Of a DNA stretch of 64,000 bases, positions 10,700 to 28,901 are shown piece by piece. The stretch is from Candidatus Heimdallarchaeum aukensis (GTDB taxonomy: Archaea; Asgardarchaeota; Heimdallarchaeia; Heimdallarchaeales; Heimdallarchaeaceae). Under the pieces are notes generated by a model, which saw nothing but the letters and a program-made list of their open reading frames with translations, ran no database searches and was not told the DNA's origin. The translations under genes and the position numbers were made by a program. Within the stretch, counting starts at the first letter, position 1. Every line of letters begins with the position of its first letter. Location of the stretch: assembly GCA_021513695.1 (NCBI GenBank), contig CP084166.1, positions 2,944,001-3,008,000 of the forward strand, given 5' to 3'.

Positions 10700-10877
10700 G
10701 ATATAGAAGTAATAGATGTATCTCTTGAAAGATGAAAGTATAGTTATTTATAAATTTAATTTAGCTAAAATAAAATATACTATTGTAGATTATTGAAATT
10801 TAATTCAGTCTAATCATCAAAAAATAAAGAATATCGTTTATTTCAATTCCACTATGTCTGATTCTAACGTAATTATC

Positions 10878-11192
10878 TTATTGTGTTTTTAAGAGTTTTA
10901 CCAGAGGTTGAATCAACTTGTCAATTCTATCAAAGGCTTCTTTTATATCTTGTTCATATGCCCAAACGTGTATGTCTCCTAACAGCAGTTCTAAATTTCT
11001 ATCTTTTTCTGTTTTCATTAAGGCAAAACCTAACCAATGTCTAACTAATGCTAAAAACCCATCAATTGAACAATTACCTTTTAAAACTTCATTATATTGT
11101 TTTATTATCAATTGTGCTGCTGCAGTAAGAGTTAGTTCTTCTTTGATTTCCTTTGTGTTAGATTTCATTAAGTATAGATTCCTTATAAACAA
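10878..11192 (-). CDS. Hypothetical 104-aa protein at the trailer end of the CRISPR array
   Basis: Clean ORF with coding-like composition. The antisense + strand ORF 10918-11196 is low-complexity. No recognisable family. Confidence 0.35.
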   Translation of the reverse strand: MFIRNLYLMKSNTKEIKEELTLTAAAQLIIKQYNEVLKGNCSIDGFLALVRHWLGFALMKTEKDRNLELLLGDIHVWAYEQDIKEAFDRIDKLIQPLVKLLKTQ

Positions 11193-13865: not shown

Positions 13866-13964
13866 ACTTCATATTTCCTATATTTTTGATAATAATAAGG
13901 CTTTTCTTTTTATTTACATTCGTGTTCCTCCCATTTGGTGTTTACTTTATAAATATCTACATTC
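13866..13964 (-). promoter_or_regulatory. Putative CRISPR leader (AT-rich, between cas2 stop and the cas-proximal repeat)
   Basis: A 99-bp AT-rich non-coding stretch lies directly adjacent to the last repeat on the cas2 side. Its position matches the inferred minus-strand transcription of the array. Confidence 0.5.
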
Positions 13965-14228
13965 TTATAATATATTTGATTTATTTCCTTTTTGTATTCC
14001 TATTTCTTTTCTTTCTAAATATTTTTCATCTCTTAATGTATATACTAATATACTATCTTCACTTTTTTTTATCATTTTTTCAATATTTTTTATTATTGAG
14101 CGCAATTCTGCTTTTGTTATTTCTCCTTCAAAAACACTATTTTGTATCCATTCCAGATATGTTTTCAGAAACCTTCTTACTTTGTCTATTCTTTCTACTT
14201 TTATATCATATACTATAATAACATACAT
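13965..14228 (-). CDS. cas2: CRISPR-associated endoribonuclease Cas2
   Basis: 87 aa starting MYVIIVYDI...SVFEGEI, a typical Cas2, immediately downstream of cas1. Confidence 0.9.
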   Translation of the reverse strand: MYVIIVYDIKVERIDKVRRFLKTYLEWIQNSVFEGEITKAELRSIIKNIEKMIKKSEDSILVYTLRDEKYLERKEIGIQKGNKSNIL

Positions 14229-14231
14229 GCA

Positions 14232-15218
14232 TTACCACCACGATATAAGTGGTTTGTATTCTAATTCACCCAAAAAGTGTTTACAAAGCTTATATAATTC
14301 AAGCCTTATTAGCCTTTTGTAACTCACATTTCTTTTTAATTCTTTGTGTTTTATTCTTGTTTTTAATTTTTGGTCCCAAAGTTCAATGAATTTTCTTTTT
14401 CCTGTCTCTGATAGCAACAAGTTTCCTATTTTTCCTTCAAAATCTTTATCGTTGAGTATTTTCTTATTTACCAAAGTTAATATTACTCTATCTGATAATA
14501 TGGGTTTAAAAATCTCACTCACATCAAGAGCAAGAGAAAATCTTCTTTCAAAAGGTTCATGTAAATATGAAATTGTAGGATTCAGTTGTGTATTATATAT
14601 TTCTGAGAGTATTGTAGTGTATAGAAGCGAATTACCAAAACTAATTAAAGCGTTCATTCTATTTGTAGGAGGTCTTCTTTCTCTTTTCACAATCTTAAAT
14701 TCTTTAGGAACAATTTGATCAATAGCTAAGTAATATTTATTTCGAATACTGCCTTCCAATCCCATTATCTTCTTAATTTCTAATATTTCTTGAATTTTTT
14801 TTGTTTCTTCTTCTATTTTTGAAATTATGTCACCAATTATTGAATCTTTTCTTCTACTCTTTAGGATTTTAATTATGTTAAAAGCTGAACCTCGAACAAA
14901 TTTTTTAGCTAATTTCAATCTTTTTGGATAAGATAGATAGTGTGCTGCTTGTTTTATAATCATATCTCCGCTAAGCAGTGTTTCTCGGGGATATAATGTA
15001 CTTTTATACCAACCATAATGATCAAAAAAGTGCACTGGAATTCCTTTTTTTCCAAGAAATAATACCACTCCGCCTGATAGAGAAAGATTTCCATATGCGT
15101 AGATTGCATTTATTCTTTCAACAGGTAAAGCTCTTTTCACATCTTTACAATGGAAATACAATGTATTTTCTTTTCTGTATAAAATTCCATTTTTCACAAT
15201 ATAAAATTCTTTTTTCAT
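14232..15218 (-). CDS. cas1: CRISPR-associated integrase Cas1
   Basis: 328 aa. The conserved C-terminal Cas1 region is ...NRMNALISFGNSLLYTTILSEIYNTQLNPTISYLHEP. Confidence 0.9.
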   Translation of the reverse strand: MKKEFYIVKNGILYRKENTLYFHCKDVKRALPVERINAIYAYGNLSLSGGVVLFLGKKGIPVHFFDHYGWYKSTLYPRETLLSGDMIIKQAAHYLSYPKRLKLAKKFVRGSAFNIIKILKSRRKDSIIGDIISKIEEETKKIQEILEIKKIMGLEGSIRNKYYLAIDQIVPKEFKIVKRERRPPTNRMNALISFGNSLLYTTILSEIYNTQLNPTISYLHEPFERRFSLALDVSEIFKPILSDRVILTLVNKKILNDKDFEGKIGNLLLSETGKRKFIELWDQKLKTRIKHKELKRNVSYKRLIRLELYKLCKHFLGELEYKPLISWW

Positions 15219-15749
15219 CTAAACCACATAACAAAAGTCTTTATACGCACACTTTGTGCATTTTGATGTTTTGATTTTTTTTGGAAGCGGTTTTTCAATT
15301 ATTTTTTCAATTTTGTTCAAAATTAGAAGAAGTTCTTTTTTATTTTCTTCAGTTAAAGTGACATTTTTCTTTTTATTTTCCTTTGGGTAGCGAATTTCTC
15401 CTTCTGCTTTTACTCCGTATCGATCTAAAAAGTAAAGATAGTAAAGTAGCTGATAGTAGTCAGCTTCTTCGTTGATACTTGATTTTTTAACTTCATTTAA
15501 TATTAATTTGTTCTTTTTATGCAAAAAATCTACATTTATAGCATCTAAGATTGTAATGTTTTTTTTCTCTCTCCGATATGATTCTTCATGTATTTGCCTT
15601 CCAATCAAAACTTCTTCATTTTCATTTTCCAATTGAATATTCCTTGCATACAACCATAGTTTCCTTTTACAAATAAAATAATAAGATACCATTACTCCAG
15701 TTATTTGTTTTGAATGTCCAAATAAGTTATTCATCACGTTCACTTTCAA
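15219..15749 (-). CDS. cas4: CRISPR-associated RecB-like nuclease Cas4 (Fe-S)
   Basis: 176 aa with one N-terminal Cys and three C-terminal Cys (CTKCAYKDFC). It sits in the adaptation module between cas3 and cas1. Confidence 0.85.
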   Translation of the reverse strand: MKVNVMNNLFGHSKQITGVMVSYYFICKRKLWLYARNIQLENENEEVLIGRQIHEESYRREKKNITILDAINVDFLHKKNKLILNEVKKSSINEEADYYQLLYYLYFLDRYGVKAEGEIRYPKENKKKNVTLTEENKKELLLILNKIEKIIEKPLPKKIKTSKCTKCAYKDFCYVV

Positions 15750-18577
15750 ATTATAAAACTCTGATCAAAAACTTCATTTAGTTTCCTTATATCCAATCCC
15801 TCTTCATAAGAAAACTTGATTAAGTTTAGAAATTCTTTGTTTACTTTAATGTATCCTCCTAATTCCTCAAATTCTCCTGTTCTGACCTTTTCTTTTATTA
15901 AGTGAATTAAAAGACGACTCTTTGAATCTATTTGTACGTATCTATTTGAAAGAGAGACAGTAAACTTGTTTAAATATTTTTGCAATTTCTTTATTTCAAT
16001 ATATCTCTCATTTTTATTTTGATTATTACAAGTAATTTGTAAAAACTTTTTCCAGACTTTTTCTCCACAAATATTAGAATCTTCAACAATCTCATTTTTC
16101 TCTAAAAACTCTTTTTCACTTTCAGGTAGTAGACTCGGGTTAATTTTTAATGATATAGGTAAAAAAATGCTAATAGTGTCACTGTTAATTACTCTGATTT
16201 TTCCTAATTCTTTAAATCTTAAATAGTTCATTGGTTCAATTATTTGCGATATTGTTATTCCATACTCACTTTCTTCTTTCTTTTTATACTCAATGGTATA
16301 CCTGTAGAACTCAGCAAATCTTTTTTCCTTGATAAATTCTTCTAATTCTTCTTTTCTATTTTCTTGGACCTTAAATCTTGTATCTACACCGTATATCATT
16401 TCCGCAGAATCCATATTGTAGACATAGAGTATGCTCTCTTCTTTACTTCTCTTATTTTCTCGATTGATCCTTCCAGCTATTTGTTCGATTGAATCAAGTA
16501 TTGCATATTCTCTAAATCCGAAATCACAATCAATATCTACACCCGCTTCTACTGATTGAGTTGATACCAAAACAACATTCCTTTCATGTGTTTCCTGATT
16601 CATTAATTGAATGATCTCTTTTCGCCTATCTGGAAGAATAGTTGAATTCAATAGGAGTAATTCAAAATTTTTTTTATCTAGATTGTTTTTTAAGTGCTGA
16701 AAGATGTTTATGGAGTTTTGTATTGTATTAGTCACGCAAAGAATTTTTTTCTTCCTTCTTTTACAACAATTTTCATATATTTTCTCTATGAAAAAGTCTA
16801 AAGAAGCAATTTCTTTAATATAGAAATTCAGAGTGTTACGAAGGAATAACTTGCTTTGAAAATACATATCAGAATTTTTTAAAAGAACTGAACATTTGTT
16901 CTTTTGCTCATTATCAAGAAATAGAGATAAATCAGGAAGCGTTGCACTCATTAAAATAAAATACATATTATAATTCTCTGCTAGTTCTCCTATGAGATTA
17001 ATAAAGGCATTCCAAAGATTTACAGGGATTGATTGTACTTCATCCATGATAATAATACTGTTAACAAAATTGTGCAGTTTTATATTAGCTTTTCTGGAAT
17101 TTCTGAAGAAAGTTTCAATAAAGTTAACACTACTAATGATATTGATCTGATTGTTCAGAAACATCTGATTAAGAAGAATTTTAGTCTCTTCGAATTCTTC
17201 CATAGTAAAATCCCATTCTATAAGTGAATAAATCTCTGAAATTGAAATATGTTCATTTTCACTAGAGAGCGTTTCTTTAATGACTTTTGCATTTTGTTCT
17301 ATAATATTAATGAAAGGAAAAACATAGTTGATTCGTTGTAAATTTTTTGTGTGTTGGTTGTTCAGAATGTCTAATGCCAGTTTTATTGACGTATTTGTTT
17401 TTCCGCTCCCTGTTGGTGATCTAAAAAAGAAAATTCGTTTTGCTTTATTTAACTCCTTCTCTAGAATACTACTACATTCAATCAAAATTCTTGTTCGTAG
17501 CTCATTTATATCTTCGATAAAGTTAATGTTTTTCTTTAACAGTTTATCAACTAAAGTTTTATCTTTAATTTGTTGATTAAATATCTTGTTTTTAAAAAAG
17601 TTAGAAACCAAGTTTTTTTTACATTTTTCATCAATTAAATTGAATTCAAGTTCACTTATATCCCAGTTATTTACAAAAGAAGCTGTAGCATAGCTATCAG
17701 CTGAAATTAAGAGAGAAAATATAAGTTTATAAAAATGAAATAGAGTATTTCCATCTTGTAATTTCTCCAAAGTAAATTTTCTTATCTTCGAATTATTGCA
17801 ATATCTTCTGAAAAGACTTAAGTTATCATCTGATATTTCAATTAATGTGCATTTTTTAATAAAGTTTATGTTCCTCTCTTCTAGTAGTTTTTTTTCTCTC
17901 TCCTCTAAATACTCTTCTATATTCTTTAATCTAGAATGATGTCTATTTACACTACTATTTAGAACTAGACTTAAGAAAAACAATTGAAAAGTTAAAAGAA
18001 GAATCTTTTTTTCTTTTTTTTCTCCCTTTTTTTGCTGAATCCCTTTCATAATGTTAAAGATCTCTTGTATGTTAAAATAATCTAAAAATATCTGCCCAAA
18101 CTCACTGTGATTTTTTGAATTACCAAAGAAATTTTCTACCGTTTCCTTTATTTTTTGATCTAATTGTTGAAATGAAAGATTTAATTTTAACACTTTTCTT
18201 TGATAGTTTGGATTTATTTTTCCAAAGTCGTGAAAATAGATTATTCTTGCAATATTTGTTTTTATGAAATCTCCAAATTTGTTTAAAGAAAGAATATCTT
18301 GATCTATATTTAATGCATTATAAATTTTTGTTATCATGTTATTGAAAATATCTTTTAATTTATACTCCTTAATAATTCTTTCAAAAATTTTTAAAGTAAG
18401 TTCAGAGTGTTGAGATAAACTTTCTACTTCGCCTGTTGGAGACATGTGGGCTTTTATTGAACTTTCAACTAATTTAGAAAACTCTTCTACAAGGAATTTA
18501 TCATAACTATATTCACCTAAAATATTAGAACAGGAAAATTGTTTCTCCATTTTCATCACTAACAAGAATATATTCAT
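15746..18577 (-). CDS. cas3: Cas3 HD nuclease-helicase fusion
   Basis: N-terminal HD region (HSELT...FHDFGK). SF2 helicase motifs follow: FFRSPTGSGKT (Walker A) and IIMDEVQS (DExx box). The true start is probably an internal Met near 18550-18556, because the annotated start overlaps cas5 by 53 nt. Confidence 0.88.
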   Translation of the reverse strand: MNIFLLVMKMEKQFSCSNILGEYSYDKFLVEEFSKLVESSIKAHMSPTGEVESLSQHSELTLKIFERIIKEYKLKDIFNNMITKIYNALNIDQDILSLNKFGDFIKTNIARIIYFHDFGKINPNYQRKVLKLNLSFQQLDQKIKETVENFFGNSKNHSEFGQIFLDYFNIQEIFNIMKGIQQKKGEKKEKKILLLTFQLFFLSLVLNSSVNRHHSRLKNIEEYLEEREKKLLEERNINFIKKCTLIEISDDNLSLFRRYCNNSKIRKFTLEKLQDGNTLFHFYKLIFSLLISADSYATASFVNNWDISELEFNLIDEKCKKNLVSNFFKNKIFNQQIKDKTLVDKLLKKNINFIEDINELRTRILIECSSILEKELNKAKRIFFFRSPTGSGKTNTSIKLALDILNNQHTKNLQRINYVFPFINIIEQNAKVIKETLSSENEHISISEIYSLIEWDFTMEEFEETKILLNQMFLNNQINIISSVNFIETFFRNSRKANIKLHNFVNSIIIMDEVQSIPVNLWNAFINLIGELAENYNMYFILMSATLPDLSLFLDNEQKNKCSVLLKNSDMYFQSKLFLRNTLNFYIKEIASLDFFIEKIYENCCKRRKKKILCVTNTIQNSINIFQHLKNNLDKKNFELLLLNSTILPDRRKEIIQLMNQETHERNVVLVSTQSVEAGVDIDCDFGFREYAILDSIEQIAGRINRENKRSKEESILYVYNMDSAEMIYGVDTRFKVQENRKEELEEFIKEKRFAEFYRYTIEYKKKEESEYGITISQIIEPMNYLRFKELGKIRVINSDTISIFLPISLKINPSLLPESEKEFLEKNEIVEDSNICGEKVWKKFLQITCNNQNKNERYIEIKKLQKYLNKFTVSLSNRYVQIDSKSRLLIHLIKEKVRTGEFEELGGYIKVNKEFLNLIKFSYEEGLDIRKLNEVFDQSFII

Positions 18578-19319
18578 GAGTTATTGTTTCTTTCACCAAA
18601 AATTCAGAATTTGAAAAAACAACAGTTTTAAAAACATATTGATTTTCTCTGAAACCAATTGGATAATTTTGATAAAAGAAAAAGTCTATATCTGCATTTA
18701 CAATAAGATCTGTTTCATCTTTTGCTACAATATCATTAAAAACAATTGTTTTAAACCTTGTTTCTGTTTCACTAGTGATTTCTTTGTATTCATATTCTCC
18801 TTCATAAATAATACTTAATGGAAATTCGTTTTTCCCCATATAAGGCATGAAATGAGCTCGATTTTCTTGTAAATTTTTCTTTAGTTGAGCAAAAATGTTA
18901 TCTTGAGCAGTTCCTTTTTCTAAATAAATTCGATAAGCAGGCTTAATGAGAATTTGTTCATTTACAATTAAATTTCCTCCCGTTTCATAGCTTCCATAGC
19001 CATGAAAGTTAATAAATTGAATGAACTCTTTTCTTAAAGGCGAATAACTATTTTCAAAATCAGAGTCTTTATATGGTGCTTTAGAGCCTTTTTTAAGCTT
19101 TAAAGGTGTTATTCCAATTCTAATGCCAGAAAGTTTATCAATAAATTCAGGATTTTGCTTTTTTTCTCGATAACCTTCAAGACCTATCAGTGCTCCAAGA
19201 ATTCCAAGTACTGATGGTTTTGGAATAATATCATAGGTCAACTTTGTTTCAGTAATGTCAGGTTTACTAAAAGTTCCAAAGTCAGAAAAAATAATGAAGG
19301 ATAAAAGATTTCTCTTCAT
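18525..19319 (-). CDS. cas5: Cas5 (type I-B)
   Basis: Glycine-rich N-terminal segment PSVLGILGALIGLEG, characteristic of Cas5. Located between cas7 and cas3. Confidence 0.8.
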   Translation of the reverse strand: MKRNLLSFIIFSDFGTFSKPDITETKLTYDIIPKPSVLGILGALIGLEGYREKKQNPEFIDKLSGIRIGITPLKLKKGSKAPYKDSDFENSYSPLRKEFIQFINFHGYGSYETGGNLIVNEQILIKPAYRIYLEKGTAQDNIFAQLKKNLQENRAHFMPYMGKNEFPLSIIYEGEYEYKEITSETETRFKTIVFNDIVAKDETDLIVNADIDFFFYQNYPIGFRENQYVFKTVVFSNSEFLVKETITHEYILVSDENGETIFLF

Positions 19320-19327
19320 ATCCTCAC

Positions 19328-20350
19328 CTAACTACTTAAAATGCTCCCGGTTAAGAGATTTTTTATCTCAAAGGTAATTTTCTCGTTTGTACTACTTTTT
19401 TCGATTTCAGTTTTAGCAGGGTCGATATAAACTTCAACTGTTATAGGATTATTCGGTGATAACACTTCTTTATTTTGGTTGATATAGTCCAATAATCTGT
19501 TTATCTTTATTCTAATTTTTCCTTTTTCTTCTGTATTTTCAAAATCTACAAAGTGTTTAAGGTTTTGAAGACAAATTGGATTATCATATTCAATATAGAT
19601 GAAACACTCTGTTTCAGAACCTATTTTTGTTGTTGAATTAACATTATGGACTCCTAATCTTGCTGCTTCCTTGAATATATCTATATCTGAATTAGATAAA
19701 AGGTATTGTTCTTTTTTTTCTAGTTTTTGAAGAACAAAATCTGACATTAAAGCATTTGGATTAATGATGTAATCAAATACATAGTGTATCTCTAATGCTT
19801 TTGTTTCTTCACCTATAGTTGTGTGCTTTGCTTCCTGTCCTTCTTTATCATCTCTATATGGAGATAATATCTGATTTATGTAATGGATATTCTCTTTTGT
19901 TGCGTTGATCCCATAGGAAATTTGTATTGGTCCTGTTATCGATAAACTTGAAAGATTTTTGCTTTTTGGAGCAAAAGTTACTCCAAACATTCTTACATCA
20001 ATGCAAGAAAGCAAATTTCTTAGGATTTGTCTGTCATCTTCTTTTTTATTTTTGTCATCAGAACTAAATAATGCATAGTAATTTTCCTCTAAGGTCATTG
20101 GACTTAGGTTGTCATTCCTTCTTCTCCAAGCGAAAATCTTAGAATCAGTTTTATTGTCTAGGATATATTTTCTGATGCAGTATTTCAGCGATTTATCTGT
20201 AGCATATATAGTCCCTTTCTCATCAGGAAGTCTTCTTGGCGTTCCTGAAAAGTCAGCATTGAAATTACTGTTTACTGACTTTACAATGATTAAGCCACTT
20301 ACGTGCTTTTCAAAAAGGTTATTTTCTGTATTGTTTTGATTTTCTTTCAA
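19328..20350 (-). CDS. cas7: Cas7 (Csh2/Cst2-type, type I-B)
   Basis: LIIVKSVNSNFNADFSGTPRRLPDEKGTIYATD is the RAMP Cas7 N-terminal signature. Located between cas8b and cas5. Confidence 0.85.
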   Translation of the reverse strand: MKENQNNTENNLFEKHVSGLIIVKSVNSNFNADFSGTPRRLPDEKGTIYATDKSLKYCIRKYILDNKTDSKIFAWRRRNDNLSPMTLEENYYALFSSDDKNKKEDDRQILRNLLSCIDVRMFGVTFAPKSKNLSSLSITGPIQISYGINATKENIHYINQILSPYRDDKEGQEAKHTTIGEETKALEIHYVFDYIINPNALMSDFVLQKLEKKEQYLLSNSDIDIFKEAARLGVHNVNSTTKIGSETECFIYIEYDNPICLQNLKHFVDFENTEEKGKIRIKINRLLDYINQNKEVLSPNNPITVEVYIDPAKTEIEKSSTNEKITFEIKNLLTGSILSS

Positions 20351-20352
20351 TT

Positions 20353-22425
20353 TTAATCCTCCTTTTTCATGAAAAATATATTTTCATCAAAAAATCCAAC
20401 GTAGAAACTCATTTTAATCTCATTAAAGGGTTGTGAAAAGTTATTTGCCAAATAATTCAGTGTCTCAGCAAAAACGATGTGTCTAAAGTCCTTGTATTCA
20501 GAGATTTCATGAAGATATTTTTCTAGATATTTTTCTAACAAAATTCTCTTTAAGTTTATAGGCGATTGTACAGACACTAAAGGTGTTAGTAGTTTCATTT
20601 TTTTATCTGCGTTGGATTTGCTGATTAAGTAGTAAACCATTTGTCCTAAATAATAGGCAAATTTTTCAGGGGAATCGATCTTAAAAGATTCTCCGTTAAT
20701 TATTTTCTTTTTTTCTTCTCTTATTTTGTCTAACATGATCTCACCATTTTTATTTTTTTTAATAAAATTATCATTTACTTTACTAAAAAGATCAGCGTTA
20801 AGATAAAAGTTTAAAATTTCATGTATCTGACTTTTTGTTGAAGTATTTTTTCCAGTTTCACTGTGCATTATAAATTTATTTTCTAATAATTTAGTTGTAA
20901 TTTCAGCAATATCGTTATCTGTTAAACATATCTCGCTTCTATAAATTGTATCAAAGAATTTTTTTCTATACTTGTAGATAAGATATTTTTGTTCTGTTAT
21001 ACCACTTTTTTTCTTTGTGTCTAAATCCCCAAAGAACTTGATCTTAAGATCAAAAATTTTTTTTAACTTTTTCAACAAATCTTCTTTTCCAAATTTCTTA
21101 CTAGATTGTGTTCCAAGATATTCTTTATATTCGGAATTTCCGTTGAAGTACAGACGATAGTTAGATATGTAATCAAAAAAAATGATCGATTTTTTATTTA
21201 TTATATTTACTAATATGATATCAAATGAATTTAGGTTGCTTCTTTTTTGAATTTCCTTTATTGTCAAAAAAAAGAATTTTCTTTTATTTTTATTATCCTT
21301 TTCTAATGATTTTAATGACTTAATAAAGTCTATTTGTTCTTTAACTAAGCTTTCTTTGATAAAAAGTGGAAAAATGTTTATCTTATTTTCTTTAAGAAAA
21401 TAGAGAAAGTTATTAAAATATTCTGCGCATGAAATACAAATTTTTATTGTATGTTTAAGATGCCTGTCAAATTTAATAGAAAAAGGCTTTTTTTCATTAA
21501 ATGATGTATAATTTGAAATATTTCCCATTTCTCCTTTTCTTCCACAAACAGGGCAAGTAGACTCAATAATTGTGTCTCTGGTAACAAACAACTTAAGAAT
21601 AATGTATTGTTCAAAAAGCTCTTCTATAACTTGATAGTTTTTATAGTTTAAGAAAACATATGCTTTGTCACATAATCTCAATAGTATATTTAGTTTTTTT
21701 AGTAAACTATACTCTTGTTCTGATACTTGATTTCTTATATTATCTATGTACTTTTTGCTTTTAATATTCTTATATTCTCCTTCTTGTAAATTAGTTCCAC
21801 CTAAAATATCCTTATTATTTTGGTCTAATAAACCAAATATGTTAAGTAATTCTCGATAAAAATGTTCATAAGTGAGCATAATCTTTGTCTTTTCTTTGTT
21901 TTTGTTTGAAGTAATTATCTCATTGATAAATTCCTTTGTTTTGTTATTTTTGACTGTATTTAAAATTAATTTCAAGTATTCGTTTTTTAAGTTAAGTTTT
22001 GAGATTCTTTCGAGAGGTTTATTTTTTCCCTTTTCATAAAGCGGATTTCTGAATAAACTTCCTAGTTTAAAATGAAATAATGAAAAAGTGTTTAATCCGC
22101 TTGTACTTCCTATGTACTTATTAGAATCTGATATTGTGGAAGTATATTTTTTAAAATCTAGTACTTTTATTAGTTCTTTTTCTTTTCTTAAAAGACTAAA
22201 AGGTTCTTTATTTGGAAAATCTTGAACAAGCTCATCATTTAGATCGGTTATTATTCTAAATCCTTTATATGAATTTTCTAGATTCCAATCTACTTCAATG
22301 AGAAAAATAACAGGAAATTGTTCTTTAATAGAATCAATATCATAATCTTCACTTACTACTAACTGTTGAGTGTTTTTTTCCATCTTTTCAAGTTCTTTCA
22401 TAAATTTAATTGATTCGATTATCAT
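20353..22425 (-). CDS. cas8b: Cas8b (Csh1-like large subunit, type I-B)
   Basis: 690 aa large protein between cas6 and cas7, with an internal zinc-finger-like CPVCGRKGEMGN...CISCAEYF. This is the position and size expected for the I-B large subunit. Confidence 0.75.
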   Translation of the reverse strand: MIIESIKFMKELEKMEKNTQQLVVSEDYDIDSIKEQFPVIFLIEVDWNLENSYKGFRIITDLNDELVQDFPNKEPFSLLRKEKELIKVLDFKKYTSTISDSNKYIGSTSGLNTFSLFHFKLGSLFRNPLYEKGKNKPLERISKLNLKNEYLKLILNTVKNNKTKEFINEIITSNKNKEKTKIMLTYEHFYRELLNIFGLLDQNNKDILGGTNLQEGEYKNIKSKKYIDNIRNQVSEQEYSLLKKLNILLRLCDKAYVFLNYKNYQVIEELFEQYIILKLFVTRDTIIESTCPVCGRKGEMGNISNYTSFNEKKPFSIKFDRHLKHTIKICISCAEYFNNFLYFLKENKINIFPLFIKESLVKEQIDFIKSLKSLEKDNKNKRKFFFLTIKEIQKRSNLNSFDIILVNIINKKSIIFFDYISNYRLYFNGNSEYKEYLGTQSSKKFGKEDLLKKLKKIFDLKIKFFGDLDTKKKSGITEQKYLIYKYRKKFFDTIYRSEICLTDNDIAEITTKLLENKFIMHSETGKNTSTKSQIHEILNFYLNADLFSKVNDNFIKKNKNGEIMLDKIREEKKKIINGESFKIDSPEKFAYYLGQMVYYLISKSNADKKMKLLTPLVSVQSPINLKRILLEKYLEKYLHEISEYKDFRHIVFAETLNYLANNFSQPFNEIKMSFYVGFFDENIFFMKKED

Positions 22426-23141
22426 TCAATCACCTCAATACAACCAAATCCCAACCCTGTTTTCTCTCCAAGGCCTGTATTGTATGCAAATTTTAACAAT
22501 TCTCTACTCGCTTGGACATCAAATGTCATCAAAGTACATCTTCTGTAGCTATTTTTTATTAAAACTCTTTTTAGTTTTAAATTGCGAATACTCGTTATTT
22601 CAAAGAAGTCTTGCTTCGGTTTTCTTCCAAAATATCTATAATATCTTTCTAACAGGTTTTTATGTAAATTTTCACTAAATTTAAGATCCCTTGGTGTAAG
22701 GTCATAAGGTTTTAGCTTTCCTTCTTTGTTGCGTCTCAAAGTCTTAACATATATTGGAGAAAGTGTTTTTAAAGTACAATCTGATTTAATATTTTTTTTA
22801 TTTTCAATTTTAATTCTCTTTACTACAAACTGCTGGGTCCCTAAATGGAATTTTAAATCTTTAAAAACGCCTGTTGCTAATCCGTCTAAAAATTCGTTAT
22901 CGATGGATGTAAAGTAAAAGAATGCTTCTTTAAAATATAATCCTTTTTTTGAAAATTTTTTCTCTTCTATTATTAAATTTGAAAAATTGTAATATTTGAA
23001 CTTTGTTTTTCTGTGTAATCTTTGTGAGACTTCTTTCTTTGAATCACTGATTTTTCTTAATATTGCACTAGTTAACCAATGTTGATAATTAAAATTTAAT
23101 GGACCATCAGTGATCTTTTCAACAAAGATTTTTAATCTCAT
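22422..23141 (-). CDS. cas6: Cas6 crRNA endoribonuclease
   Basis: 239 aa with the C-terminal glycine-rich loop GLGEKTGLGFGCIEV typical of Cas6. It is the first gene of the cas operon. Confidence 0.85.
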   Translation of the reverse strand: MRLKIFVEKITDGPLNFNYQHWLTSAILRKISDSKKEVSQRLHRKTKFKYYNFSNLIIEEKKFSKKGLYFKEAFFYFTSIDNEFLDGLATGVFKDLKFHLGTQQFVVKRIKIENKKNIKSDCTLKTLSPIYVKTLRRNKEGKLKPYDLTPRDLKFSENLHKNLLERYYRYFGRKPKQDFFEITSIRNLKLKRVLIKNSYRRCTLMTFDVQASRELLKFAYNTGLGEKTGLGFGCIEVIE

Positions 23142-23306
23142 AATATCACATTTTCATTATATAATTGTCCTACACATATAAAAATATTTCGTATTTTTGC
23201 AACAATGTTATTTTTTTGGGACAGTATCGTATTACTATGACTGTTTTATTATCTATTGACAATCTTTTACCAAAAGATTTATTTTAAATAAATCAAATCT
23301 TTTCAT

Positions 23307-23945
23307 GTGAAGACAATTATAACTCCCTCTGGATTTGAGCCAAAGCCAATTATTTCTTTTATTGTTAAAGAAGGAATTAGTAAAGAAGATAGAATAATCA
23401 TCATAAGACCAAAAGAAGATAAGATGCCTAAAGATGCAAAAGATGCTCTCTCAGAAATTAAAAAATTTATTAGTTTAATATCAGAAGATATTGAAATAGA
23501 TCTTAAATTCGTTGACATTTCTGATTTCGATATTCTTCTAATTGATTTACTTGAAATATTCAAAAATATAAATGGAGAAGTTATTGTAAATACTTATGGA
23601 AGTGTTAGAGAAATTACAATTGGCTTAACAATAATTAATCTTCTTTTTAAAAGAAATATATCAAAAGTTTATCATTATTCGAGAATGGATGAAGAATGCT
23701 TCTTACTAAATCTACCTGCAATTGTCTTCCCATTGGAGGGTATGGAAAAAAAAATACTTTTATTACTGGAAAACTCTGCTATTAATGATTATAACAGTTT
23801 GGCTAAAACTTTAAAAGTTTCAAAAAGTACAATCTCACGCGTAGTCCATATTTTAAATGACAAGAAGCTGGTTTCTGTTACAGAAACAGGGAAGAAAAAA
23901 ATAATAAAATTGTCTGTATCAGGACGATTATTAGCAAATTTATGA
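23307..23945 (+). CDS. csa3: Csa3-like CRISPR-associated transcriptional regulator (CARF + winged HTH)
   Basis: N-terminal Rossmann-like CARF region (IITPSGFEPKPIISFIVKEG...IIIIRP) and a C-terminal HTH (LAKTLKVSKSTISRVVHILNDKKLV). Divergent from cas6. Confidence 0.6.
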   Translation: MKTIITPSGFEPKPIISFIVKEGISKEDRIIIIRPKEDKMPKDAKDALSEIKKFISLISEDIEIDLKFVDISDFDILLIDLLEIFKNINGEVIVNTYGSVREITIGLTIINLLFKRNISKVYHYSRMDEECFLLNLPAIVFPLEGMEKKILLLLENSAINDYNSLAKTLKVSKSTISRVVHILNDKKLVSVTETGKKKIIKLSVSGRLLANL

Positions 23946-23978
23946 AAAAATTTCTTTTCTTAATATTTCACTTTTTAT

Positions 23979-24003
23979 AATCAGACCATAGCGGGATTGA
24001 AAT
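23979..24003 (+). repeat. Solitary degenerate CRISPR repeat (25 of 30 nt, 1 mismatch), in opposite orientation to the main array
   Basis: The + strand reads aatcagaccatagCgggattgaaat. The reverse complement of the array repeat is gttagaatcagaccatagTgggattgaaat. No second repeat follows. Confidence 0.8.
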
Positions 24004-24324
24004 TATTATTCTATTTAGTTTGACTTATTATACTGGTCTGTTTGTAGAAATTTTCAAAGCAACTTTCGATAGTTACAGAAAAATCGTTATCTAATATCCA
24101 TGCGATGAAGAAACAGATGAAAGACTGATTCAATACTTTTTTGGAGATAAAAATGGAATTTTTTTAAATATCTTTTCTATATGCTTTTTAACAATGTTTT
24201 TAACAACTGCTTCTTTTTTTTGTTCTTTATTTTTAGTTTGTGATGCAAAGTTCTTTTTTCTATAAACTTCTCTGTCTTAAAGAGAATTTTCTTCATTTAT
24301 AAATAATCTTTTGAATTTTTAATT

Positions 24325-25305
24325 ATGACAGTCATACTTCAAACTAGAAATTTGTATAAGACATATGATAAAAAGGTTAAAGCCGTACAAGGAATAGATT
24401 TAGAAATAAAAAATGGAGAAGTTTTTGGATTACTTGGTCCAAATGGCGCAGGAAAAACGACTTTAATAAAGATGCTCGTTGGAATCTTGAAACCTGACAA
24501 AGGAGAAATTTTGTTCAATGGCATTAAATTAAACGGTACGACTGAACTAAAAGGACTGATAGGTTATGCTCCACAAGAATTAGTTTTCTATCCTTTCTTA
24601 ACTGTCTTAGAAAACATGCAACTTTTTGCTAGTCTTTACTCGATTAAAAATGCAAGAAAACGTATAGATGAAATTTTAGAACTTTTTCAACTTACAGAGT
24701 TGTCAAAAAGACAAGCTGAAAAGATGTCAGGAGGTCAGAAGCGTCGATTAAATATTGCTTTAAGTTTACTTCACTCACCACAGATTCTCTTTTTAGATGA
24801 ACCTTCTTCAGGTATGGATCCGCAGAGTAGAAATGTGTTATGGGAAAGTGTAGAACAATTAAAAGAGAAAGAAGGGGTAACCATCCTTTTATCAACTCAT
24901 TTAATGGAAGTAGCTGATAAACTGAGCGATAGAGTTGCGATAATTGATCATGGAAAGGTTCTAACAGTTGGAACACCTGATGAGTTAAAATCAAAACATG
25001 CATCTATTGAGACAGTGGAAATTCAATTTGCAAAAAATATTTCTCCTTTAATACAAGAAAAAATAACTCTTCAGTTGAAAGATAAGTATGAACAGCTTTC
25101 GACAGCAAATGACAGGTTCTTTATTAAAACAAAAAACGGTTTGAAAGCAATATCTGATATTATGAAAACTATTGAAAGTCTAGCAGTTCTTTCCTACTTA
25201 CAAGATATACAACTTCGTCTTGGAACGTTAGAAGATGTATTTTTGAATCTAACAGGAAAAGAACTTAGAGAAAATAATTTTAGTTTTGGAGGTGATAGGA
25301 GATGA
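24325..25305 (+). CDS. ABC transporter ATP-binding protein (ABC-2 exporter family)
   Basis: Walker A GLLGPNGAGKTT, ABC signature LSGGQKRRL, Walker B ILFLDEPSSGMD. ATGA overlap with the permease gene. Confidence 0.9.
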   Translation: MTVILQTRNLYKTYDKKVKAVQGIDLEIKNGEVFGLLGPNGAGKTTLIKMLVGILKPDKGEILFNGIKLNGTTELKGLIGYAPQELVFYPFLTVLENMQLFASLYSIKNARKRIDEILELFQLTELSKRQAEKMSGGQKRRLNIALSLLHSPQILFLDEPSSGMDPQSRNVLWESVEQLKEKEGVTILLSTHLMEVADKLSDRVAIIDHGKVLTVGTPDELKSKHASIETVEIQFAKNISPLIQEKITLQLKDKYEQLSTANDRFFIKTKNGLKAISDIMKTIESLAVLSYLQDIQLRLGTLEDVFLNLTGKELRENNFSFGGDRR

Positions 25306-26603
25306 ATTTGAGAAATAACAAGTTTGTTCAACTATTAAGTGTAAACCTTAAAGCAATTTATAGACAAAGAATGGTTCTTTTCTTTACGCTTCTCTTTCCC
25401 TTGATATTTATTGGTGTTTTCGGTATATCCTATGGTGGAGATGGGGCAACAACTCGTACTATGGATCTTATAGTAATTAACAATGATTTAGGTATTCCTG
25501 AAAACACTGTAGCTTTTTATGGAAATGAAACTGTTTCAGGGACATTTTACTCTGAAAAGTATTTAGAATTACTAGGCAATCTTGTTTACCCGGATTCAAA
25601 AGACAATAAATCTGTTTTTTTTATTACTGTCATCAATGAAACAGAAAGAGACAATGCACTGTTCAAACTTGAACGAAGAGAAATCGTTGCTCTTCTTACT
25701 TTACCTGAAGATTTTAGTTTAGGTATACTCTTTAGTTTTAGAACACAATTTAGCAACGATAGCTTCTTTTCTTTATTGACTAACAATTGGTCTGGTTACC
25801 CAGAAAGCTCACTTTCGGTAGAAATTACTATACTAGGAGACTCAAGTACAGAAGAGTTTGCTATTGCAGGGCCTATTATAAATGAATTCAGTAAAATGTT
25901 TTTTCAGCTAGGAAATGAACAACAAACTGGAGTGAATGTTAACATAATCGGAAACTACCAAACTAAAGGTTTCAGCACATTTTACTATATTGTTCCTGGT
26001 GTTATAATTTTCGGTGTGTTGCAATCCCTCACTTCTGGAGCAAGCAGAACTATGCGCGATGTAGACTCAAAGAATTTGGAAAGAATTCGTTTAACTCGTG
26101 TAGCTTCTTATACTTATGTAAGCGCGCTTATTGTTAGTCAAGCCTTGTTAGTTGCTATTCAAGTACCAATAATGTTTGTAACAGCAATGCTTTTTGGATT
26201 AGAACTATCGATACATGTATTAAGCGGAATAATTGTAGGAATTATTCTTTCTTTCGCCACTACAGGAATAGCCTTTTTGCTTGCTGGACTTGTACGTAAA
26301 GGTGACGAAGCAGAAGGGTTAGCTAATCTTATAGCTGTTCCAATGGCTTTTCTCTCTGGATCTTTTACCGTTATGCCAAACCCTGAAATTCTTCCTAATG
26401 TTGGCTGGTTAGGAGGAAACTCTTTGCGATTGTTTGATTTCTTGCCTTCTACCCCTGCTGTAAGAATATTACGTTCTTTAATTCTTGGACAAAGAACTTT
26501 AGGTGAGAATTGGTTTGATCTATGTCTATTAACTCTGCTAGCCTTTCTCTACCTTGGACTGGGGTTGGGTGTATATATTCAAAAACACTTGAGAATGAAA
26601 TAG
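25302..26603 (+). CDS. ABC-2 type transporter permease with a large extracellular loop
   Basis: 433 aa: one N-terminal TM helix, a ~170-aa loop, then 5-6 C-terminal TM helices. Translationally coupled to the ATPase. Confidence 0.8.
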   Translation: MNLRNNKFVQLLSVNLKAIYRQRMVLFFTLLFPLIFIGVFGISYGGDGATTRTMDLIVINNDLGIPENTVAFYGNETVSGTFYSEKYLELLGNLVYPDSKDNKSVFFITVINETERDNALFKLERREIVALLTLPEDFSLGILFSFRTQFSNDSFFSLLTNNWSGYPESSLSVEITILGDSSTEEFAIAGPIINEFSKMFFQLGNEQQTGVNVNIIGNYQTKGFSTFYYIVPGVIIFGVLQSLTSGASRTMRDVDSKNLERIRLTRVASYTYVSALIVSQALLVAIQVPIMFVTAMLFGLELSIHVLSGIIVGIILSFATTGIAFLLAGLVRKGDEAEGLANLIAVPMAFLSGSFTVMPNPEILPNVGWLGGNSLRLFDFLPSTPAVRILRSLILGQRTLGENWFDLCLLTLLAFLYLGLGLGVYIQKHLRMK

Positions 26604-26628
26604 TTCTTTATCTCTTTTTTGAGAATTT

Positions 26629-26976
26629 TTATCCTTCTTTTTTTTCTTCTAGTATGGTTGTTAATGCTGTGGTCATTAGATTTGCATACTCTTGGATAGA
26701 GTTTACCCCTTTCTCTGTTAAATATAAAATAGTTGTAGGTTTGGCTTTAATGAACGCTTTTTGAACTTCAATTAATCCATTCTCTTCTAGTTTCTTAATG
26801 TGAGAAGAAAGATTACCTGCAGTTAAGTCTAAAACCTTTTGAACTTCAGTGAAAAGAGCTTTTCCTTTAGGTAAAAGAAATATCATAATCGCTAGTCTAA
26901 CAGGTGTGTGAATAATATCATTAACACTAGCGACTTCTTTGAGAACATTCTCCTCCTCAGAACTCTCTTCACGCAT
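26629..26976 (-). CDS. ArsR/PadR-like winged-helix transcriptional regulator
   Basis: 115 aa. HTPVRLAIMIFLLPKGKALFTEVQKVLDLTAGNLSSHIKKLEENGLIEV fits a wHTH recognition helix plus wing. Confidence 0.55.
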   Translation of the reverse strand: MREESSEEENVLKEVASVNDIIHTPVRLAIMIFLLPKGKALFTEVQKVLDLTAGNLSSHIKKLEENGLIEVQKAFIKAKPTTILYLTEKGVNSIQEYANLMTTALTTILEEKKEG

Positions 26977-27054
26977 TCAATACACACTTAATCATTAATA
27001 TTATTAAACTCTTAATTAGTATTTCTGCTGAGAAATTTGTATAATTAATGCAAA

Positions 27055-27149
27055 GTGTTTAAACTAAACTTAGACATGTCAAATGATGCTCATCTTTTCT
27101 AGGAGAAGTTTTATTAGGCATGTTTAAACTAAACTTAGACATGTCAAAT
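27055..27149. promoter_or_regulatory. Two copies of a 30-bp direct repeat (tgtttaaactaaacttagacatgtcaaatg) in a divergent promoter region: candidate operator pair
   Basis: Identical copies at 27055-27084 and 27120-27149. Each contains the palindromes GTTTAAAC and ACATGT. They lie between the ArsR-family gene start (26976, minus) and the membrane protein gene start (27242, plus). Confidence 0.5.
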
Positions 27150-27241
27150 GGCTTACCATATTCTCTTTTTTTACTCTTAAATAGACTTTGTGAAGCAAAC
27201 TTCCTTCTTAGTTTAAATAAACATAAATCAATTACCATATA

Positions 27242-27898
27242 ATGGCAGAGGATATATCATCTAGCGAAATTAGAGAATTATTAAGTTATATGGAAAAAAT
27301 CAAAAATTTTGAGAAAAAGTATAAACTACAACTTGAATCAGTTCAGAAGATGATATGGGGATGTTTACTCCTTATTGCAGGTATTTTAGATTTCGTTTTT
27401 GCAGCTTATCTATTTAGATATGGTCCTGTTTTTATCCCCTGGATATTTATTGTCCCTGTCAGTGTGCTCTTAATGAATTTTGTTAGTAACCGTCCAATTT
27501 TAACAGAAGAAAAAAAGAAGAAAAAGCCATTCTATAAAGAACCAATCTATATTGGGCTTCTTTTAGTTATAGTTGTAATGATCGCTTTTGGAAATGCTAA
27601 CTTATACTATTTAATTATGCCAAGTATAGCAGTAATTATGGGGGTAGCAATCCTTGTTGATCATAAGTTTGTCTTAACAGGTAAAGAAAGGGCAATTGAA
27701 TATCTCACTCCTGTTCTGACCATAGCAACAGCTCTAGTAAATCTTTTAGGTTATTTCTTTATAAAGGAAATCAGTATTCCTGCCCTGGCTATTGAACCTA
27801 CAAACTTTACTATCTTTCACGGGTTAATCTTTGGCTTTGTTTTTGGTATAATGGAGATAATAGAGGCTATCTTGACGAGAAAAAAAACTTTTGCATGA
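27242..27898 (+). CDS. Hypothetical polytopic membrane protein
   Basis: 218 aa with a soluble N-terminal 30 aa followed by about 5 predicted TM helices. Confidence 0.5.
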   Translation: MAEDISSSEIRELLSYMEKIKNFEKKYKLQLESVQKMIWGCLLLIAGILDFVFAAYLFRYGPVFIPWIFIVPVSVLLMNFVSNRPILTEEKKKKKPFYKEPIYIGLLLVIVVMIAFGNANLYYLIMPSIAVIMGVAILVDHKFVLTGKERAIEYLTPVLTIATALVNLLGYFFIKEISIPALAIEPTNFTIFHGLIFGFVFGIMEIIEAILTRKKTFA

Positions 27899-27978
27899 CA
27901 AAAGACTTCCTCAAAATAATACCCTTTATCCCTCTCTTTCTCCTCTCGGACAAATAGTTAAAGCTCATCTTTTCTATC

Positions 27979-28251
27979 TTGGTTTTTATCGTCATAATCA
28001 ACATCCCTAGTGTTTTAGTAGTGTTAAACAAGTTTTGCTCTCCTCAAACTCTCTTTTTCTCTTTCCTTGATCGTTTACCTCTACCATCTTTAATTGTGGG
28101 ATTGATTGCTGGAATTGCAACAGGAGGACTTCTTCTTTTTGAACTGTTCCTGAGTTTTGATATGGATGTTTTAAAAAAAATCAGACTGGCTTTTTCAATA
28201 ATTGCAACAATATTGTCGATTATTCTAACGCTTATCAAGTTTTTAATGTGA
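27979..28251 (+). CDS. Hypothetical small membrane protein
   Basis: 90 aa with two hydrophobic helices. Weak support. Confidence 0.25.
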   Translation: MVFIVIINIPSVLVVLNKFCSPQTLFFSFLDRLPLPSLIVGLIAGIATGGLLLFELFLSFDMDVLKKIRLAFSIIATILSIILTLIKFLM

Positions 28252-28901
28252 TAACTTGATCAAATAGAGTTAAAGTTAGGTGTCATTCTCTTTGGAGGAA
28301 GTTTCGGAATTAGTGGAGTAATAAGTAATTTATTCAAGAACAATTAAAAGTTAAAAGATGTAATAGCTTCTTTTATTCCTTTTTTATACATTCCATTTGC
28401 TTACCTGCAATCAATTTACTTTAATTTCTAAAATAATTGTTTTATTCTTATTGACTAAATAAAGAAGATTTGTATTTAACATGTAATCTTGTTAATTTTA
28501 ATTAACAAGTTTTAATAGAAAGAAAACTCATCATCAACTACTACTTTTTATCAAAATAGTTCTTTATTATAAGTTGTTATCTAATAAGGAGATACATACA
28601 AGAAGGAAGATAATTTTACTCATGAAGAGTCCTTTTAACGAATATGAACGTAAAATGAGCTTAAAAAGAATAAATATCAACTTAATTTCGTATAAGGAAT
28701 ACATAAGTATGTACAAATCCAAGATTATGTTGCAAGAATGAAGCTGATTTACTGTAGTTCTCTTTTTTACTAATAATTATTTTTTGAAAAAGAAAAAATG
28801 GCTGTAATAACAAACAGTGATTGTGTGATGATATTAATTTCTTGTTAATGAAAGAGAAAAATTTATAGAAAATTGTCGATTAATCAACTTTGTGAATTTA
28901 T

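Follow-up and report, generated by a model that had tools for sequence, protein, structure and literature searches.

Self-regulating stand-alone repeats and mini-arrays of CRISPR (clusters of regularly interspaced short palindromic repeats) systems are a recent discovery, described mostly in bacteria and haloarchaea. Mini-arrays in cas loci that make CRISPR RNA (crRNA)-like molecules, including the CreR type, and whose spacer pairs in part with a cas promoter form an established class for which CreR autorepression has been demonstrated experimentally (Shmakov et al. 2023, bioRxiv 10.1101/2023.03.03.530964; Liu et al. 2023, bioRxiv 10.1101/2023.03.10.532045), and for type I-B, mini-arrays upstream of cas6 have been described whose target site falls between the mini-array and cas6 (Shmakov et al. 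2023). Some solitary repeat units may be mini-arrays with a deteriorated distal repeat (Shmakov et al. 2023), and in haloarchaeal type I-B CreTA, which combines an antitoxin RNA (CreA) with a toxin (CreT), one or more ectopic repeats make a crRNA-like RNA with which Cascade represses transcription through partial pairing (PMC9458426). Here we analyse an orphan CRISPR repeat just 3′ of the regulator gene csa3 in a 64-kb stretch of DNA (the window) whose named homologues place it in the circularised genome of the Asgard archaeon Candidatus Heimdallarchaeum aukensis. Comparison with sister strains leads us to conclude, with moderate confidence, that the orphan is the csa3-proximal repeat (R1), together with the first ~11–18 spacer nt, of an old mini-CRISPR with two repeats that occupied the outer edge of the type I-B locus and is truncated here beside the mobile element HeimM1. 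The novelty is modest: a known class of element, here linked to csa3 in an Asgard archaeon.

The window holds a complete type I-B CRISPR-Cas locus in which csa3 is transcribed divergently from the cas operon (Table 1), and the crRNA-sense form of the array repeat, GTTAGAATCAGACCATAGTGGGATTGAAAT, is on the - strand. A preliminary description of this DNA had reported a 25-nt repeat match at 23979–24003 (+), and this sequence, AATCAGACCATAGCGGGATTGAAAT, indeed corresponds to the last 25 nt (3′ end) of the array repeat apart from a single T>C substitution; it extends to a 30-nt unit that agrees with the array repeat at 27/30 positions, with mismatches G1T, G5T and T19C. Searching the whole window with up to 3 mismatches recovered the 38 perfect - strand copies of the array and this single + strand orphan, dinucleotide shuffles gave 0 matches, and the next best non-array 30-mer in a scan of all positions reached 19/30. 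The csa3 stop ends at 23945, with the full orphan beginning 28 nt and the 25-mer 33 nt beyond it on the csa3 strand, and the orphan is inverted relative to the main array 10.1 kb away, in agreement with the earlier account. The crRNA-sense orientation proposed there is likewise reasonable, because the repeat ends 3′ in ATTGAAAT, similar to the 8-nt tag AUUGAAAC carried by type I-B crRNAs (PMC3479195), because the leader side of the array abuts cas2, and because a degenerate terminal repeat sits at the far end of the array. The 8-nt handle-coding end of the orphan is intact.

The orphan thus has the features of a solitary repeat unit, being a repeat match of at least 16 bp that lies in the locus and outside the array (27/30), and it is conserved in close loci of Ca. 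H. endolithica PR6, contig L007 and the aukensis strain contigs. No partner repeat follows it in the window genome, as first described: the site at which a second repeat (R2) would be expected after a 36-nt spacer (24040–24069) agrees at 10/30 positions and holds only GTT..AGAA traces with no recognisable repeat, and the best + strand candidate (24106–24135) reaches 17/30, a score for which ~0.1 occurrences are expected by chance in the interval. Both were rejected as chance-level after ungapped scanning and gapped alignment, as were possible inverted half-copies near 24019–24050 and 24139–24168. A leader like that of the main array is also missing at the orphan, with no similarity to 13866–13964 found in 23946–23973 or the csa3 3′ end, and the csa3–orphan gap is 33% identical to its endolithica counterpart with an 18-nt indel.

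To place the orphan among relatives we used five aukensis-type contigs (L001–L004 and L047), which are identical across the orphan region and hence uninformative on conservation, and three endolithica-type contigs (L005–L007, of which L005 is Ca. H. endolithica PR6), all of which carry the orphan at the orthologous site. A csa3 search of 5.8 billion protein clusters returned only one other relative, which belongs to PR6 of the sister species Ca. H. endolithica and shares 90% amino-acid identity with the window protein, and a csa3-based search of metagenome contigs found no relatives. In PR6 the orphan occupies the same place and strand (L005 10686–10715, TTTAGAATCAGACCATAGTGGGATTAAAAT, 28/30). 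The aukensis and PR6 orphans differ at 3/30 positions, set against ~30% difference at four-fold degenerate sites of flanking cas genes (P = 0.009 for at most 3 differences in 30 at a 30% rate). The G1T change is common to all three R1 copies and the remaining changes are lineage-private, with two in aukensis (G5T and T19C), the most of all copies, one in PR6 (G26A) and none in L007.

Contig L007, from a different sample and with csa3 identical to that of PR6, carries at this same site a two-repeat mini-array, R1–37-nt spacer–R2, followed by the downstream sequence seen in PR6. L007 R1 (2547–2576, TTTAGAATCAGACCATAGTGGGATTGAAAT) agrees with the array repeat at 29/30 positions, R2 is a perfect repeat, and the spacer reads TATTGTTCTATAGCTTTTTTTGCTGCTGCACGATAGA; the mini-array hallmark of a second repeat-like unit across a 20–60 bp spacer is therefore present in L007 and absent from the window. 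Directly after the orphan, the window retains a spacer stub that aligns in fixed register with the start of the L007 spacer (TATTGTTCTATAGCTTTT) at 10/11 positions over the first 11 nt and 13/18 over the first 18 nt, falling to 2/19 over the next 19 nt. Among control pairs of real spacers, 10/11 was reached in 1/1176 and 13/18 in 2/1176 (~0.1–0.2%; empirical P ~1e-3), and gapped alignments of the two sequences beyond ~20 nt were not significant (P = 0.25–0.4). Across R1 plus 11 nt, aukensis and L007 differ at 3/41 positions (P = 4.5e-4 against ~30% four-fold-site divergence).

The site therefore exists in three states: intact in L007, collapsed between R1 and R2 in PR6, and truncated inside the spacer ~165 nt from the HeimM1 border in aukensis. 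Because L007 has R1–spacer–R2 followed by the same downstream sequence as PR6, the PR6 state looks like an R1 × R2 recombination collapse that deleted the spacer. The L007 mini-array and the stub homology in the window together argue that the ancestor of both species already had R1–spacer(–R2) 3′ of csa3, and hence that the mini-CRISPR predates the aukensis/endolithica split. In the window genome the element has most likely been truncated and is decaying, since its distal repeat is gone, its stub has no matching target and its R1 carries two private substitutions. This comparison of syntenic loci had been suggested in the preliminary description, which held that an absence of conservation in relatives would count against the element; with the mini-array at the site in L007 and the orphan in PR6, the element is conserved. 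The accompanying proposal of a remnant of a second array lost by deletion survives in part, supported by the repeat–37-nt spacer–repeat in L007 and the first ~11–18 spacer nt kept in the window, except that the lost array was only a two-repeat mini-array without a main-array-like leader. The intact, collapsed and truncated forms constitute a natural series that offers a ready comparison for whether such elements matter, and carry a lesson for annotation: what looks like a lone repeat may be all that is left of a mini-array, which close strains reveal and array comparison does not.

The L007 spacer also suggests what the intact element might do. Spacer positions 2–11 (ATTGTTCTAT) match the strain's own 165-nt cas6–csa3 intergenic region exactly and once (1776–1785), beside TTTTTTATAAAT. 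This seed-anchored run of 10 exceeds all 49 real-spacer controls (maximum 9) and was reached by 3/2000 shuffled spacers (P = 0.0015), and PR6, which has lost the spacer, has two changes in the corresponding 10-nt intergenic site. A seed match of at least 10 nt in the system's own cas promoter region, as expected of CreR, is thus found in L007 and not in the window, where the best run of the stub in the aukensis cas6–csa3 intergenic region is 6, within the range of real-spacer controls. In the mechanism we propose, an intact mini-array would be transcribed by csa3 read-through or from its own promoter, Cas6 would cut 8 nt from the repeat 3′ end, and the resulting crRNA-like RNA (AUUGAAAU handle plus spacer) would load into Cascade. 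An L007-type RNA would start AUUGAAAU-UAUUGUUC, and an aukensis RNA, if made, would start at 23996 as AUUGAAAU-UAUUAUUC. Cascade would then pair through ~10 seed-proximal nt with cas6/csa3 intergenic DNA, and because pairing of ~10 nt is too short for Cas3 cleavage, the predicted outcome is transcriptional tuning of cas6 and/or csa3 by CreR/crRNA-like logic, a repression that would have been lost in aukensis. CreR-like regulation by the intact element is reasonable but unproven.

The L007 form resembles CreR mini-arrays in its two repeats around a normal-length spacer, its conservation among close relatives and its ~10 seed-proximal nt matching a site between the mini-array and cas6. It differs in that the whole csa3 gene lies between the mini-array and the putative target and in that both repeats are nearly perfect and not degenerate; the window keeps one repeat and a spacer stub without a target. 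Several points weigh against the mini-array interpretation and its regulatory extension. The L007 target is flanked 5′ by TGC, whereas the only two bona fide protospacers known for this system are both preceded by CCA, its candidate protospacer-adjacent motif; spacer position 1 mismatches the target; and by our own reading the target lies between the two best-conserved TATA-like cores and not on them. The intact form is seen in one contig only (L007, 3.3 kb), conservation of the 11-nt seed alone is not significant (P = 0.11), R1 conservation could be explained by gene conversion from the array, and PR6 manages without the spacer, so any function is dispensable. For the window stub, a target search of both strands of the 64-kb window under type I rules, ignoring every sixth position, did no better than 40 shuffled spacers; its best hits, inside cas1 and cas8b with non-CCA flanks, were rejected.

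Other described elements match the locus less closely, apart from the solitary repeat units of Shmakov et al. (2023), from which the window copy, a near-identical intergenic repeat with no detectable downstream partner, differs in nothing of substance; the intact form in L007 marks it as the deteriorated mini-array type of such units. CreTA shares the ectopic repeat or repeats making crRNA-like RNA that redirects Cascade, but we found no toxin candidate with a promoter matched by the spacer: the promoter-like motif and open reading frames (ORFs) that follow show no match to the window stub or to the L007 spacer, and the spacer of the endolithica mini-array has none in the small ORFs beside it. 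Racr elements (Camara-Wilpert et al. 2023, PMC10651486) are comparable as solitary mimics of a host repeat adjoining mobile DNA. The orphan, by contrast, belongs to the host locus, with cassette collinearity running through it, HeimM1 homology starting only at 24168 and a copy present in PR6 without HeimM1 at this site; it also retains the end that encodes the 5′ handle, and we identified no promoter upstream of it. A collapsed array or degenerate terminal repeat likewise leaves a lone repeat after repeat–repeat recombination, which is exactly the state of PR6, but the window copy is proximal and not at the trailer end, has its changes at the 5′ end and in the middle, and is not preceded by a main-array-like leader.

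Table 1. Coordinates of the features discussed, as window positions unless a contig is named
Feature	Position	Strand	Description
Degenerate terminal repeat	10840–10868	-	GTTAGAATCAGAC-ATAGTGGAATTGAAAT, one deletion and one mismatch
504-nt segment	10869–11372	-	Separates the last perfect array repeat from the terminal repeat in the manner of a giant spacer
Main CRISPR array	11373–13865	crRNA-sense on -	38 identical 30-nt repeats, 36–37-nt spacers
Array leader	13866–13964		99 nt, abuts cas2
Type I-B cas operon	13965–23141	-	cas6 (22422–23141), cas8b, cas7, cas5, cas3, cas4, cas1, cas2
cas6/csa3 intergenic region	23142–23306	no strand	Divergent; window version has no match to the mini-array spacer
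csa3	23307–23945	+	CARF/HTH regulator, GTG start; TIGR01884 at 82.5 bits
csa3 stop–orphan gap	23946–23973	+	28 nt, T-rich (TTTCTTTTCTT, CTTTTT)
Orphan repeat (R1 of former mini-array)	23974–24003	+	TTTATAATCAGACCATAGCGGGATTGAAAT, 27/30 to array repeat
Spacer stub	24004–24021	+	TATTATTCTATTTAGTTT, directly 3′ of orphan
HeimM1	24168–28594	+	ABC ATPase, ABC-2 permease, winged-helix regulator, 218-aa ORF
Solitary repeat copies in other genomes and a metagenome contig	L030 3089–3118, L031 5708–5737, L041 3501–3530; also L010, L029, L027, L028, L036		

The orphan sits at a rearrangement-prone edge adjoining HeimM1. According to its published description (PMC8813620), this element is inserted beside the C2 Cas operon and two C1 spacers target it; term searches of that paper, which described these genomes, turned up no lone repeat at the junction. 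HeimM1 is absent from this site in endolithica PR6. The aukensis and PR6 sequences are collinear from the array to the last base of the orphan (24003 / L005 10715), where the agreement breaks off exactly, and again from 28595 / 11585 onward, leaving an aukensis-only stretch of 4.6 kb, and aukensis 24004–24167 shows no significant homology to the endolithica insert (P = 0.29 and 0.82). Both outer flanks of the CRISPR-Cas locus are syntenic in the two species, and the earlier suggestion of a recombination scar marking insertion of the cas cassette is, as worded, unsupported. On contig L043, a 95% identical HeimM1 copy begins at the equivalent of window position 24168. Ahead of it stand an inverted repeat (29/30, C9T), the array trailer and the initial 70 nt of the gene that lies left of the array, and both the array and the cas genes are missing from between (L043 542–731, 740–4400). 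This layout suggests either that the whole CRISPR-Cas cassette was lost or gained between bounding repeats or that HeimM1 captured the end of the array. Because the L043 homology starts at 24168 and a pair of short-read contigs from aukensis-type strains stop alike at 24141, we place the HeimM1 border ~140–165 nt past the orphan and not at the orphan itself, which pins the border zone to the CRISPR-repeat-bearing edge of the cas locus.

Two endolithica spacers match HeimM1, one at 26169–26204 in the ABC-2 permease gene (36/36) and one at 26780–26816 in the winged-helix regulator gene (35/37 positions by BLAST), and these are the two oldest, trailer-most spacers of the endolithica array (L037 3805–3840 and 3738–3774). 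Each of these two protospacers has CCA in front of it. A search for attachment-site direct repeats flanking HeimM1 found only short AT-rich matches, for example 24081–24096 and 28571–28586, and was set aside. Within the element, a perfect 30-nt direct repeat, TGTTTAAACTAAACTTAGACATGTCAAATG, occurs at 27056–27085 and 27121–27150, 65 nt apart, in the intergenic region between the regulator and the 218-aa ORF, and the pair may be operator sites. At the right edge of the aukensis-specific region, the 350 nt at 28085–28433 are 74% identical, in inverted orientation, to L005 15552–15906, 4 kb further along.

The opposite end of the array is also disturbed. A degenerate terminal repeat, absent from the preliminary description, lies 504 nt past the final repeat of the array, in the position that the last repeat takes in the endolithica array. 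The intervening 504-nt segment is homologous end-to-end (70%) to positions 227–721 of L040, a contig of mostly ORFan genes, and its junction shows GATTGAAAT / GATTGCAAT microhomology. Within the segment lie a 96-aa ORFan (10878–11168, - strand), a promoter-like motif and a truncated divergent gene; in L040 the counterpart of this gene has a P-loop-like motif, GLPGSGKS. In PR6 the orphan is followed by two convergent 96–97-aa ORFan genes (L005 10757–11050, +; 11145–11435, -), which are paralogues at 41% identity, and by an inverted degenerate repeat (L005 11476–11505, -, 19/30). Each PR6 ORFan is preceded by a repeat or degenerate repeat, 40–41 nt ahead of its ATG, and by a shared motif, CAAC..TTATTTGTTT, and the aukensis orthologue of one of them is located inside the array end. 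The 96-aa family has four known members, with only two relatives among 1.84 billion representatives and no Pfam hit, and its AlphaFold model is a 4-helix bundle (predicted local distance difference test score 80) with no meaningful match in the Protein Data Bank.

Repeats of this kind recur well beyond Heimdallarchaeum. The family GTTAAAATCAGACCATAGTGGGATTGAAAT, from which the window repeat is one base off, is widespread in methanogen-related archaea. It and its close variants form arrays in Methanocellales, Thermoplasmatota and Methanolliviera metagenome-assembled genomes, and occur in contigs binned as Clostridia and Nealsonbacteria and, in single copies only, in Halobacteriota contigs; the repeat was absent from the viral contigs searched. 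The cas cassette (window 14000–23500) has a G+C content of 24–30%, against 31–37% in flanking genes, and this, with the kinship of the repeat, is compatible with a horizontal origin of the cassette. Several genomes have solitary copies or repeat-gene-repeat layouts, including a whole gene between two repeats in Methanolliviera, and solitary copies far from cas genes, in Methanocellales, Methanolliviera, Halobacteriota and a metagenome contig, usually lie just after a co-oriented gene. The metagenome contig carries a perfect solitary Heimdallarchaeum-type repeat 4 nt past such a gene, and two Methanocellales genomes stop being collinear precisely where a solitary repeat, overlapping the stop codon of a gene, has its 3′ end. 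By a manual tally against mechanically listed ORFs in other archaea, 9/12 assessable solitary copies are ≤~125 nt downstream of a co-oriented ORF (~P = 0.07), a trend that is only suggestive. Solitary repeats of viruses have already been proposed in the literature as integration or recombination points.

These observations bear on several alternatives to a truncated mini-array. The intact handle and the 10/11 conservation of the seed would suit a live one-repeat crRNA-like regulator in aukensis, for which Cas6 would make the 5′ handle, termination or trimming would set the 3′ end, and Cascade, guided by the seed TATTATTCTAT, would find its target beyond the 64-kb window or at a site with a non-canonical match. 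As precedents, CreA RNAs can arise from one ectopic repeat (PMC9458426), and Haloferax I-B crRNA made independently of Cas6b is reported to support interference (PMC4326828). Such a regulator nevertheless appears unlikely given the failure of any stub target in the window to beat shuffled controls, the control-range run of 6 in its own cas6–csa3 intergenic region, and the two private substitutions in R1. The sense orientation of the orphan 28–46 nt past the csa3 stop in all genomes compared, together with the positions of solitary repeats elsewhere, raises instead a Cas6 processing or binding site in the 3′ untranslated region of csa3 mRNA that controls transcript stability. One repeat is enough for Cas6b cleavage in vitro (PMC3479195), so the window orphan would still be a Cas6 substrate if transcribed. 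The recognition hairpin invoked for this role in the preliminary description is not borne out: the repeat RNA is essentially unstructured (minimum free energy -3.0 kcal/mol, z -0.07), the orphan substitutions are not compensatory in the fold, and shuffled sequences fold as well as the csa3 3′ region that includes the orphan (z -0.65). With T-runs that we read as typical of archaeal termination between the csa3 stop and the repeat, a weak co-orientation trend, and an L007 architecture that is a mini-array and not a 3′ untranslated element, we regard control of csa3 in this way as very improbable.

A further possibility is that the orphan is purely a DNA-level recombination junction, a stray repeat at which homologous or microhomology recombination with mobile DNA took place and which never had an RNA role. 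This would fit the exact end of aukensis–PR6 collinearity at the orphan, the different sequences beyond it (HeimM1 in aukensis, ORFan genes and an inverted degenerate repeat in PR6), the foreign 504-nt fragment between the last two array repeats, the L043 copy in which HeimM1 abuts a trailer-end repeat with the cas locus absent, the two Methanocellales breakpoints, and the integration via solitary repeats proposed in the literature. The R1 × R2 collapse in PR6, however, itself accounts for the exact break against that genome, homology to L007 runs 11–18 nt into the spacer, HeimM1 homology begins ~165 nt further on, and the match of the L007 spacer to the promoter region is left unexplained; we consider a junction of this sort quite unlikely as the whole account. 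The more general idea that solitary repeats are DNA-level recombination or docking points is kept alive by these observations, which do not on their own account for the L007 architecture. Chance similarity or assembly artefact is already refuted by the absence of shuffle matches and by the same sequence in L001–L004 and L047 and an orphan in L005–L007. Beyond the truncated mini-array, a broader synthesis can be drawn, which as a whole we hold to be doubtful: Heimdallarchaeum type I-B would carry a csa3-linked CreR-like mini-CRISPR through which Cascade tunes the promoter region between the divergent cas6 and csa3, so that autoregulation guided by crRNA is tied to a CARF/HTH regulator; the three states would be traces of how mobile elements and recombination between repeats have shut the circuit down; and solitary repeats in several archaeal orders would serve as docking or recombination points for mobile DNA.

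Some minor observations concern the sequence around the orphan and the main array. The 320-nt gap ahead of the next gene holds no small ORF or known RNA family that would explain it, and the orphan itself has no Rfam hit. A sub-threshold Rfam match to a C/D-box snoRNA (small nucleolar RNA) family at 24097–24158 (+; 23.6 bits, E = 0.13), between the orphan and HeimM1, has box spacing that looks atypical and is probably chance. Bacterial-type promoter and terminator scans, which do not suit archaea, stayed at shuffle level, and a resemblance between the array trailer and the sequence after the orphan, at P = 0.006 without correction for the 28 comparisons made, was kept as a weak lead only. Within the main array, an internal block of four spacers is duplicated (11671–11905 = 12601–12835, offset 930 nt), and one spacer is duplicated in tandem (13067–13103 = 13134–13170).

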